A stretch of 29,041 nt of DNA from Deferribacterales bacterium (lineage in GTDB: Bacteria > Chrysiogenota > Deferribacteres > Deferribacterales > Geovibrionaceae): positions 1 to 29,041 of the forward strand of contig JBFWJG010000034.1 in NCBI GenBank assembly GCA_050253335.1, read 5' to 3'. Shown here piece after piece: positions 11,638 through 14,864 of the stretch. Position numbers and translations under genes: made by a program. The notes beneath the pieces are model-generated. The model saw only the letters and a list, made by a program, of their open reading frames with translations, had not been told where the DNA came from and did no database searches. The stretch's first letter is position 1; each line of letters starts with the position of its first letter.

Positions 11638-11672
11638 AAAAAAGGGCTCCTTCAATCTGAAGAAGCCCTTCT
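11638..11672. terminator. Probable bidirectional terminator between nspC and receptor gene
   Basis: AAAAAAGGGCT...AGCCCTT hairpin between convergent genes; the A run reads as a U tail on the minus strand. Confidence 0.7.
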
Positions 11673-11680
11673 GATTTTCT

Positions 11681-13924
11681 CTAAAAATCCATTGTCATCG
11701 AAAGCCAGTACGATCTGCCCGGCTCATTGTAGGTGTATGCGTTTGCCTTTTCCGCGCCTGCGGCTGTGGCGGAGGCGGAAGCGGAGTTCCCTTTGCGGTG
11801 AATCTGCTTATCGAAAATGTTGTTTACACCCGCTCTCATAGAGAGGTTTTCAAACACTTTGTACTGTGCGCTGAGCCCCACAAGGGCGTAAGGTTCGATC
11901 TCGTCCTTTTCGATCTCTCTTTCCGTTCTTATCTCTATGGAGGGAGTTTCCTGCTTTCCGTAGAAGGTGGCGTTAGCACCAAGAGAGAGTTTTTCTGTCG
12001 CTCTCCAGTCGATAAAAGTGTTCACGGTATATTCCGGGACTATGCTGAGAGGCTGGCCTGTTCTTTTCAGCTCTGACTCTATCATGTAGGTAACGTTGGT
12101 GTTAAAGTCCACATCTTTGCCGAGAGCGACAAACACGTTCCCCTCTACACCCTGAATAACCGCATCCCCTGCGTTTTCCCATTTGTAGACATCCCTGTTG
12201 CCGTTTACCGTGTCAACGGATGTTTTGCCTGCGAATACTTTATTGTCATAATCGTTATGGAAGTAGCTTGCGCTCGCCCTGAAAGAGTCCGAGTCATAAG
12301 CAAGACCGATTTCCTTGTTTATGCTTGTTTCAGGATCAAGATCCTCGTTCCCCTGAAGGTAGCATCCGCCGCCCAGTGAGCTGGCGCCGCCGTAGCACCC
12401 TGTCCCTCTGCTGTAAAGCAGGTAATTGGGGTTGCTCTGGTAAAGGTTCGGCGCTTTATAAGCCCTTGCGACGCCGCCTTTCACCGCCCAGTTGGAATTG
12501 ATTTCGTAATATGCGTTAAGGCTGGGGCTTACGTTGCTGCCGAAGACTTCGTGCTCGTCAACACGCACACCGGGAGTCAGAGTCAGACCGCCGCCGAGGT
12601 ATATGTTGTCCTCCAGATAAAAGGCAGCGTTATAAGCCTCGGTATCAGTTTTGCCCGCATCGAACCCTTCAAGGTCTATATTAAGCCATGACATGGCGGG
12701 CGAGTTCCTCAGCGAGCCTTTATCATCCAGGGATTCGTCACGGTATTCCGCACCGACGGTGAGTGTCTGGGCAAACCCGAAAAGATTAAGAGGAATGTCC
12801 GCCTTCACGGATGTGAGGAAACTGTCGTACTGAGATTCGGCCATGCCGGGCTCATAGGTCGGGGTATCTGTTATTTCGCCTTCCAGACCGCCGGCAAGCC
12901 CCTCGTTAAGGCGGGTGTTAACTGTGCGGTCGTAGCTGACATCCAGACGGGTTTTACCCCAGTTCCAGTCTCCTGTGTGGGTTGCGGCGATATTCCTGCG
13001 GCGTATTACGTTTGTTTCCTCGCCGTAGAGAGATTCGGTGTATGCGTTGCCGAAGTTCTGCATTGAGTCTCCGGCGTATATGTTGCCCTGACGGCTGTAT
13101 CCGCCTGTGAGCTCAACAGACTGCTGTCTGTTTACATCCCAAGAAAGAAGAGCGTTAAGATCCCTGTTGCGGTAGCCTTCACGTCCGGCAACGTTTTCAG
13201 CGCCGCCGTAAACCGCTTCGCCTTCGTTAATGCTTTTTGCGTCCGCATCGCGGTAGTTCATGCCGCCGTATATGCGGAATGAAACCGAATCGCCCGCAGG
13301 CCCGCTGACCGATATATTTGTGCGGTAGGAGTCCCCTTCCTGAGCGTCCTCCTGAATATTGCCCATTACTGTCATGGAGCCGGAAAATTCTTTGTCCGCC
13401 TTTTTGGTGATTATATTCACCACACCGCCCATTGCGCCGGAGCCGTATCTGGCCGCCGCAGGCCCTCTGAGCACTTCCACACGCTCAACCATCTCCGCCG
13501 GAATCCAGTTTGAATCGCCTCTGGTGTCTCTTTCCTCCGTCCAGCCGTAGCGTACGGAGTTGCGTGACTGAACAGGGCGGCCGTCAATGAGTATCAGTGT
13601 GTTTTCGGGGCCCATGCCGCGCAGGTCTATCTGGCGGTTGTTCCCTCTGGAACCGGAGGCTGAGTTCCCTGTAAGGTTAACGCCAGGCTGGCGGCGTATA
13701 ATTTCCGAAAGGTCGTTGATGGGAGGATTTTTTTCTATATCCTCCTTTGTGATGATTGACGAACCGAGTGACTGCTTAACCTGCTCCGCCGCTGTGCCTA
13801 CCACTTCCACCGTGTCGAGGGTGATCGTCTCATCCGCCGCGTATGCGCCCGCAGCACCGAAAGTTACCGAGAGTGCGAGCCCGAGCGCAAAGATATGCCC
13901 AAAGCCGTATCTGCTTTTTTTCAT
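11681..13924 (-). CDS. fepA: TonB-dependent ferric catecholate siderophore receptor, FepA/PfeA/IroN-like
   Basis: Signal peptide and TonB box (DTVEVVG). Plug PGVNLTGNSASGSRGNNRQIDLRGMGPENTLILIDG...RDTRGD and loop LYSRGTGC...GGCYLQGN...ETSINKEIG are close to the FepA sequence as I recall it. C-terminal Phe. Confidence 0.9.
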   Translation of the reverse strand: MKKSRYGFGHIFALGLALSVTFGAAGAYAADETITLDTVEVVGTAAEQVKQSLGSSIITKEDIEKNPPINDLSEIIRRQPGVNLTGNSASGSRGNNRQIDLRGMGPENTLILIDGRPVQSRNSVRYGWTEERDTRGDSNWIPAEMVERVEVLRGPAAARYGSGAMGGVVNIITKKADKEFSGSMTVMGNIQEDAQEGDSYRTNISVSGPAGDSVSFRIYGGMNYRDADAKSINEGEAVYGGAENVAGREGYRNRDLNALLSWDVNRQQSVELTGGYSRQGNIYAGDSMQNFGNAYTESLYGEETNVIRRRNIAATHTGDWNWGKTRLDVSYDRTVNTRLNEGLAGGLEGEITDTPTYEPGMAESQYDSFLTSVKADIPLNLFGFAQTLTVGAEYRDESLDDKGSLRNSPAMSWLNIDLEGFDAGKTDTEAYNAAFYLEDNIYLGGGLTLTPGVRVDEHEVFGSNVSPSLNAYYEINSNWAVKGGVARAYKAPNLYQSNPNYLLYSRGTGCYGGASSLGGGCYLQGNEDLDPETSINKEIGLAYDSDSFRASASYFHNDYDNKVFAGKTSVDTVNGNRDVYKWENAGDAVIQGVEGNVFVALGKDVDFNTNVTYMIESELKRTGQPLSIVPEYTVNTFIDWRATEKLSLGANATFYGKQETPSIEIRTEREIEKDEIEPYALVGLSAQYKVFENLSMRAGVNNIFDKQIHRKGNSASASATAAGAEKANAYTYNEPGRSYWLSMTMDF

Positions 13925-13981
13925 GTTCTCCCCTTTTGTTTCGGAATTCAGAAGATTCTCACGGATATTATTTGAAAAGAT

Positions 13982-14071
13982 GCCGGTGCCTGTTCAGTTT
14001 CCGCTCCAGTGCGGAAACATAAAACGGGTTCATCCCTTTGAAAAACTAAAAGGCGAAGACCCTGCACAAGC
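13982..14071 (-). ncRNA. Candidate structured cis-regulatory RNA in the receptor 5' leader
   Basis: Three-stem junction folded by eye, with G-U wobbles that favour the minus strand, and an alternative anti-SD pairing. See findings. Confidence 0.45.
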
Positions 14072-14078
14072 CACAAAA

Positions 14079-14107
14079 ATACTAGCCTCCGGAAACTTCG
14101 ATGTCAA
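14079..14107 (-). promoter_or_regulatory. Sigma70 promoter for the receptor gene
   Basis: TTGACA (14107-14102), N17, TAGTAT (14084-14079) on the minus strand; predicted TSS near 14072. Confidence 0.75.
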
Positions 14108-14208
14108 TAGATTTATTTTTCATATCAAACTTTATTAGTCAGTTGTAACGACCGCTGAAATGAAGCTGAAAACCTTGCTTTTTTTTGCGTTTCTCAAATC
14201 CTCACAGC

Positions 14209-14237
14209 TTGTAACATCCGGTATTAAACCTTATAAT
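14209..14237 (+). promoter_or_regulatory. Sigma70 promoter of the pqiA-pqiA-MCE operon
   Basis: TTGTAA (14209-14214), N17, TATAAT (14232-14237). Confidence 0.7.
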
Positions 14238-14243
14238 ATGATT

Positions 14244-14864
14244 ATGAAAACTTCAGAACGGGATGAAGAGACACTCACCGCCTGCGCCCTTTGCGGTTCG
14301 GTGACATCTTTCAGCAAAAACACTTACGGCAAGGTAACATGCCCCCGCTGCGGCAGCACTGTCAGAAAACAGCGGAGGAACGCTGCCGCCTATACGGCGG
14401 CGTTCAGCATATCCGCGTTCATGCTGTTCGTACCCGCTCTTCTTTACCCTGTGCTGGATATTTCAGTAAGCAGTCTCAGCAACTCCGCCACAGTTCCAGC
14501 GAGCATTAAGGCTCTTTATGATGAAGGGCTCGGCGCCGTGGGGCTTCTTGTGCTTCTGACCTCTGTGGTGATCCCCATGAGTTTCCTTATCACTTGCTTT
14601 TATGTCTCCGTTTCCGCGCTTGCCAAACGCCGGTTCCCTTTTTTCTTCCCCGCCCTGCGCCTATCCGGTTTTTTTCAGAAATGGCACATGGCGGATGTTT
14701 TTCTCGTCGGCATACTGGTGTCCGTGGTTAAGCTTGTTGATATGTCGGAACTCAGTTTCGATTACGGAATATACCTTCTCATGGCTGTCTGCGCCTTCAC
14801 CGCCATTGCCGAGGTATACTACGACCCGCTTCTTTTCCGTCAGGAGGCCGCCGGACATGACTGA
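14244..14864 (+). CDS. pqiA: PqiA/LetA family half-protein 1 (Zn ribbon + TM domain)
   Basis: CALC...CPRCG Zn ribbon, TM helices, WHMADVFLVGILVSVVKL motif. Start uncertain (14244, 14238 or 14160). Confidence 0.88.
   Translation: MKTSERDEETLTACALCGSVTSFSKNTYGKVTCPRCGSTVRKQRRNAAAYTAAFSISAFMLFVPALLYPVLDISVSSLSNSATVPASIKALYDEGLGAVGLLVLLTSVVIPMSFLITCFYVSVSALAKRRFPFFFPALRLSGFFQKWHMADVFLVGILVSVVKLVDMSELSFDYGIYLLMAVCAFTAIAEVYYDPLLFRQEAAGHD

Follow-up and report, generated by a model that had tools for sequence, protein, structure and literature searches.

Translational riboswitches of the cobalamin, thiamine pyrophosphate (TPP), molybdenum cofactor (Moco), NiCo and yybP-ykoY classes occur on TonB receptors. 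Elsewhere, the promoters of fepA/pfeA genes are repressed by Fur. A protein-based type of leader control is represented by the Com-mom system of phage Mu. In the available text of PMC6483171, the only role described for Com is that of a translational activator in a phage, and the motif obtained by SELEX (systematic evolution of ligands through exponential enrichment) is NGAGNNCC(N)2-3GAGNNCCNN within a hairpin, where the accessibility of a GA is the key element. Com-like genes also precede lectin-like bacteriocin, tailocin cargo and levansucrase genes in Pseudomonas, and the accessible part of PMC6240691 describes their general regulatory role as still to be explored. We analysed a window of 29,041 nucleotides (contig JBFWJG010000034.1 of the Deferribacterales bacterium assembly GCA_050253335.1, family Geovibrionaceae), focusing on the minus-strand leader (positions 13,925 to 14,107) of a fepA-family TonB receptor gene. 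A previous sequence-only reading had proposed that this leader is a novel riboswitch. We conclude that this is probably not so, and that an unlinked Com-like gene probably uses an 18-nt hairpin of the leader to control uptake genes from a distance. We assign a probability of about 0.6 to the reading that a Com-type protein controls the translation of TonB uptake genes in trans.

The receptor gene (11681-13924, minus strand) encodes a 747-residue FepA-family TonB-dependent siderophore receptor (NCBIfam NF010048, 967 bits for a cut-off of 493; NF010051, 938 bits for a cut-off of 583). Its Shine-Dalgarno (SD) sequence, GGGGAG (13928-13933, minus strand), is followed by the ATG 3 nt downstream and is mostly paired in the computed ensemble. 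This supports the earlier view of a structured leader with an occluded SD. That reading had overlooked the conserved hairpin at 13960-13943; this hairpin is paired with the SD in 51-52% of the ensemble, a larger share than that of the long-range arm discussed below. The hairpin is located 18 nt 5’ of the receptor start. Its sequence is GA-[GAAU]-CUUCUGA-[AUUC]-C, with the stem formed by 13958-13955 and 13947-13944. The loop and the 3’ arm also pair with the SD at 44-61% in four of four orthologs.

The search for orthologs covered 61 genomes. It gave close receptors in the three congeners alone (85-95% identical), together with a 60% identical paralog in G003. A protein scan of metagenomes gave no further orthologs, and a pattern scan gave one true ortholog in 40 matches, the rest being without a receptor or com gene. 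All the orthologs and the paralog keep the promoter and the proximal hairpin, while the flanking 5’ domain of three stems aligns poorly. Compared with the present genome, the promoter is 62-73% identical, the stem domain 36-49% and the proximal 57 nt 67-91%. In the G003 paralog, which has a single 5’ hairpin, the stem domain is absent and the proximal site is kept.

A narrow pattern of the proximal motif matched in 8 of 68 genomes from the phylum; the controls gave 0 matches. Four of the matches are outside the genus, where they follow a short CxxC..CxxC frame and precede a different TonB receptor. The frame corresponds to Pfam PF10122, Mu-like Com. This arrangement, with the motif directly 3’ of the com gene and 5’ of a different TonB receptor, is found in 6 genomes of two sister genera. 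PF10122 is present in 13 of the 68 genomes. A wider pattern matched in 11 of the 68, the 10 com-positive genomes of the family and one (G047) where the match is in a coding region; com and the motif co-occur in the same 10 of the 16 genomes of the family. One or two hairpins stand behind 10 of the 15 com genes examined, and none behind four of this genus and that of G061.

The present genome has a single com gene (zinc ribbon at C78:6346-6435), located on another contig than fepA. The protein exceeds the Pfam cut-off for PF10122 and matches the PHROG ‘gpCom’ family. It has 47 residues, with 16 of 32 positions identical to Mu Com. Across the genus, the 36 residues of its core share 89-100% identity, though no site stands behind com. 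In four of four congeners, this lone com, with its own promoter-like sequence, is placed 5’ of a radical S-adenosylmethionine (SAM) gene (G000:C78:6300-6560; L028, L105), and a weak Com-like hairpin lies inside the radical SAM coding region 3’ of com. The genes on the other side are presumably of tetrapyrrole/cobalamin type. No mom gene or prophage was seen at the C78 com locus. In G001-G003, another TonB receptor without a site is found about 9 kb upstream of com.

A site model was built from 26 sites (23 distinct), chosen by patterns that partly enforce pairing. The four stem pairs are kept in 100% of these sites, with 26 double-sided changes, a number reached in 0 of 500 shuffles. The letters of the stem vary with compensation and G-U pairs, and the spacer length varies too. 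Positions 13960-13943 are the best match of the model within the window, by construction. Since the training sites had been picked by pairing-enforcing patterns, an independent test was run. Starting from the best 80 of 203 com loci in the genome collection, we set aside 3 that belong to the training lineage, 5 that are duplicates and 1 that is short, which left 71. Within 200 nt behind the zinc ribbon, 26 of these 71 loci have the hairpin; the comparison sets gave 0 of 71 (antisense), 0 of 69 (far downstream) and 6 of 71 (upstream). When GAG..A..CC words behind the ribbon were collected and pairing was not demanded, the three free stem positions were paired in 30 of 45, versus 9 of 225 controls. 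On these grounds, we consider hairpin 13960-13943 as a putative RNA site of a Com-family zinc-ribbon protein. The G002 site differs by one base from the SELEX motif, as given in the accessible part of PMC6483171.

Other arrangements of such hairpins were observed. At L135, L146, L148, L182 and L201, Com-type hairpins are also present about 220-250 nt upstream of the zinc ribbon; these may correspond to autoregulation of com. At L050 (G008), L025, L027, L037 and L038, Com-type hairpins stand in tandem, with two stem types separated by 8-12 nt. The L050 tandem has no linked com gene, and a canonical Fur box lies upstream of it.

A scan of the present genome gave 167 generic hairpins, of which two are near a start codon: that of fepA and one before a lipoprotein gene on contig C14. 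Control patterns gave 0-4, so that the number of hairpins near starts means nothing by itself. The C14 hairpin (G000:C14:9062-9120; L107) is located 41 nt before the start of a 1068-residue lipoprotein without a Pfam or PHROG family, followed by a TonB receptor and further transport genes. No receptor-plug locus besides fepA and C14 was found in this genome, against 9-11 in its congeners. Among genomes with the lipoprotein gene, the site is present in 4 of 5 that are com-positive and in 0 of 14 that are com-negative (in one genome, the upstream sequence was limited to 23 nt); family membership confounds this comparison. In the C14 leader, the site pairs directly with the SD, and a strong SD-masking hairpin is seen in four of four family members. 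With the Com-type hairpin held, opening the SD is computed to cost 3.8-9.6 kcal/mol less in all four. The C14 leader is probably a better test case than fepA. Further members of a regulon were not found: 12 new model matches in 5 genomes included none convincingly before a start, and a pattern for the second stem type gave 7 extra matches, all in coding frames.

These observations suggest a mechanism in which the fepA leader would consist of two modules, the proximal hairpin 13960-13943 and the 5’ three-stem domain. The hairpin would be the RNA site of the single, unlinked Com-family zinc-ribbon protein encoded on C78. In the unbound state, its loop and 3’ arm would pair weakly with the SD; the bound protein would hold the hairpin and thereby alter ribosome access. 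By analogy with phage Mu Com acting on mom, and from the behaviour of the second target, the direction would most likely be translational activation. The same protein may also control the C14 lipoprotein-receptor cluster, forming a small trans-acting regulon for outer-membrane uptake. Iron or another metal could be the signal. The fast-evolving 5’ domain would be kept for its shape, most likely to protect the 5’ end of the translationally silent mRNA.

Several observations weigh against this proposal. Among the independent com loci, 45 of 71 have no site, and G061 has a com gene with no site behind it. The co-occurrence of com and motif is confounded by kinship and, in 6 of the 10 genomes, by physical linkage. 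The linked com genes are of a different sub-type from the one on C78. Generic hairpins are common by chance, as shown by the 167 of this genome, and within the genus a site lies directly upstream in only 5 of 30 TonB-receptor loci, all of fepA type. The site of this genome departs from the SELEX motif, as it appears in the available text of PMC6483171, at three points (UC for CC, a 4-nt linker, GAA for GAG), and the native Mu site is undetected by the 26-site model. Moreover, the fepA hairpin is weak alone (-0.7 kcal/mol; 6-19% of the ensembles). Holding it does not ease opening of the fepA SD (change in opening free energy, ddG, of +0.1, -0.4, +1.2 and +0.9), the value being -2.1 for the G003 paralog. 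In the same calculation, the Mu control gave only -0.4 to -0.8; the calculation is thus blunt and cannot decide for fepA. Finally, in folds of this genome’s leader with the proximal hairpin fixed, 82% of the sampled structures have the SD paired with the long-range arm.

The last result brings us to the 5’ domain (13982-14072, minus strand). The three stems of the sequence-only reading, P1 (14071-14064 with 13989-13982), P2 (14062-14026) and P3 (14018-13997), are all present in the minimum-energy fold. That reading took P1-P3 for a new metal- or siderophore-binding aptamer and the 5’ arm of P2 (14042-14059, minus strand) for an anti-SD switch. The sequence does contain the proposed duplex, 14059-14042 with 13942-13927. 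It comprises 16 pairs, of which two are G-U, and two bulges of a single base each (-13.4 kcal/mol), and lies about 2 kcal/mol above the ensemble. The junction begins at the predicted 5’ end of the mRNA and a three-way junction forms in three of four orthologs, the domain folding with z-scores of -2.85, -1.72, -3.62 and -2.08. The absence of a known riboswitch class was also borne out: Rfam 15 gave 0 matches in the window at the gathering score, two irrelevant sub-threshold matches in 13800-14300 at E<=10, and no match on the ortholog loci. When the proposed structure is placed on an unfitted alignment, 72.9% of the cells are paired, versus 65.4% in shuffled alignments and 35-52% when it is slid. 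Pairs changed on both sides amount to 10 of 32, with 2 of 500 shuffles as high, for a structure taken from one of the four rows of the alignment. All this would fit an aptamer. Against it, stem-domain identity within the single genus is no higher than that of upstream intergenic DNA (47-59%), and RNAalifold returned 0 consensus pairs on the four sequences. No conserved junction, loop or ligand-pocket residues are evident in these sequences, no copy of the domain was found outside the genus in 41 genomes, and the paralog keeps the proximal site without it. On its own, the stem domain has a folding z-score of -2.8; of 130 upstream control windows, drawn from 289, 7 did as well. The whole leader is unremarkable (z -0.98). 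The opposite strand folds at z -3.96, so that the strand specificity advanced earlier provides no argument. The long-range duplex occupies 26-28% of the ensemble here and 0, 0.3 and 0% in three orthologs, which speaks against the P2 arm as a conserved anti-SD switch; 51 of 1000 shuffles are as good (p 0.051), a borderline value. The pairing of the long-range arm with the SD is peculiar to this genome, and shows that a riboswitch-like fold, convincing in one genome, can be lineage-specific. The comparison of orthologs, expected to reveal conservation, thus largely goes against the sequence-only reading: the shape of the stem domain is weakly conserved, with modest covariation, and its sequence is not. 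Among the switches responsive to metal, siderophore or protein that had been named, the protein option stands, and an aptamer in P1-P3 is the least probable of the alternatives we considered. The 5’ domain is probably a stabilising or insulating structure. One can also imagine a composite switch of opposite sign in this genome, where the Com-like protein would hold the hairpin, the SD would pass to the P2 arm and the gene would be repressed or stay off. The 82% value and the lack of predicted SD opening at fepA are in line with this. However, the pairing is absent from the orthologs, the second target resembles an activator switch, and P2, transcribed first and folding as a local hairpin, may be kinetically out of reach for long-range pairing. 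We regard this composite as quite unlikely.

The motif may also be read as DNA, as a quasi-palindromic operator downstream of the promoter for the Com-like protein or another regulator. GAGAAT-N6/7-ATTCC is indeed a near-inverted repeat, and the weakness of the isolated RNA hairpin would agree with such a role. On the other hand, the compensated stem changes, G-U pairs and varying spacer, as well as the strictly sense orientation (0 of 71 antisense), argue for RNA. The sites lie 14-41 nt from start codons and about 110 nt from the promoter, and Mu Com binds RNA according to the accessible text of PMC6483171. An operator is accordingly very unlikely. Somewhat less improbable, though still unlikely, is that the site is a remnant from the leader of an ancestral com operon, kept by its closeness to the ribosome-binding site or by a recent exchange of fepA alleles, with no present control by Com. 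Among contigs from 4 of 24 listed sequencing runs, those of two (X3, X6) switch to the G002-type allele at 13989, meaning that the stem domain and the proximal module have separate histories. As a related observation, identity to G002 and to the X3/X6 contigs breaks sharply at window positions 13989 and 14223, with 92% towards fepA and 76% towards pqiA, which points to recombination within the leader. The break at 13989 shared by this genome and G002, the lack of a predicted effect on SD access at fepA and the unlinked com would all suit a relic. Yet G001 and the 60%-identical paralog also have the site despite diverged surrounding leaders, two independent targets exist, and com is highly conserved without a linked site. 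We retain Com-type control in trans as the most probable reading. In a more elaborate form, a domesticated Mu-type zinc ribbon would regulate TonB uptake genes in trans in this genus, replacing Fur boxes at those promoters and perhaps sensing metal directly through its four-cysteine site, with the long-range arm as a second layer in this genome. This extended version is possible but doubtful.

The sigma-70-type promoter TTGACA-N17-TAGTAT of the sequence-only reading is found at 14107-14079 on the minus strand. It has 10 of 12 consensus matches and a predicted start site at about 14072. The -35 box, the 17-nt spacer and the -10 box are kept in four of four orthologs. The promoter scan gave 5 promoter-like sites versus 2.2 ± 1.3 in shuffles. 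A second weak match at 13996-13967 was rejected, its -35 region not being conserved. An upstream element, CTAATAAAGTT(T) (14127-14138, minus strand), with a second AATAAA at 14117-14112, is also kept in four of four orthologs and is a candidate UP element or regulator site. A near-identical AATAAA-N13-AATAAA..TTGACA block precedes another gene of this genome (G000:C24:16670-16600, minus strand), which we take to be csoR-like and to accompany a heavy-metal ATPase gene. De novo motif search in 20 promoters gave a TCTAAC-N3-GTTAGA-like palindrome that scored no better than spurious motifs.

No canonical 19-bp Fur box was found at the fepA promoter (best score 4.8, versus 17.4-26.3 for the training boxes), in agreement with the earlier remark on Fur. 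Because the genome carries 4 Fur-family genes over cut-off, a variant Fur box may exist at fepA. Canonical boxes are few in this genome: 15 score above 12, the best (20.1) lying between divergent feoA genes, and none was found at the com gene. Such boxes do precede a linked com gene in G005 and the lipoprotein target of G008.

A terminator-like hairpin with a T run, identified by eye and absent from the terminator-scan list, is located 3’ of the receptor gene (11638-11670, minus strand). On the other side, a divergent promoter, TTGTAA-N17-TATAAT (14209-14237, plus strand), identified by promoter scan and gene families, serves a pqiA-pqiA-pqiB cluster, PqiA being split here over two genes. In four of four congeners, the -10 box ends 6-7 nt 5’ of the in-frame pqiA ATG at 14244 (window 14209-14246, plus strand), which suggests a leaderless pqiA mRNA. 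Two other interpretations of the fepA leader were discarded: a leader peptide, as short frames differ among orthologs, and a repeat or mobile element, as the sequence is single-copy in the genome and 2 of 40 relatives match it in part, in each case over its proximal portion.

If Com-type control is confirmed, a post-transcriptional layer would be added to the control of bacterial iron or metal uptake, and a searchable motif would become available for Com regulons. An unlinked com gene with two defined target leaders constitutes a small testable system, with a 47-residue protein and an 18-nt site. We found no description of a chromosomal Com regulon in listings of the open-licence literature, subscription papers being outside the scope of the search.

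Compared with the riboswitches of TonB receptors, the fepA leader shares a structured leader and an occluded SD, but has no Rfam match, no conserved aptamer sequence and no conserved expression platform. The receptor family is that of the Fur-repressed fepA/pfeA genes, whereas the canonical Fur box is missing here. Like the Pseudomonas com-like genes of PMC6240691, the present case ties Com homologs outside Mu to non-phage genes; those are adjacent genes, however, and the accessible part of that article describes no RNA site or TonB target. The closest system is Com-mom of phage Mu (PF10122; PHROG 13819, 6417). Both have a small CxxC..CxxC zinc-ribbon protein and a hairpin with a 5’ GA, a 4-bp stem, a C...GA loop and a 3’ CC, placed beside the SD. 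The fepA-type site is also close to the SELEX motif and to RNA I of PMC6483171, as available. The stem register differs from that of the native Mu site, which the model misses, and the fepA leader has no strong inhibitory hairpin. Unlike in Mu, com is chromosomal, with no mom gene or prophage seen at its locus, and the putative targets are TonB uptake genes. What appears to be new at this locus is an unlinked com gene with two putative target leaders.
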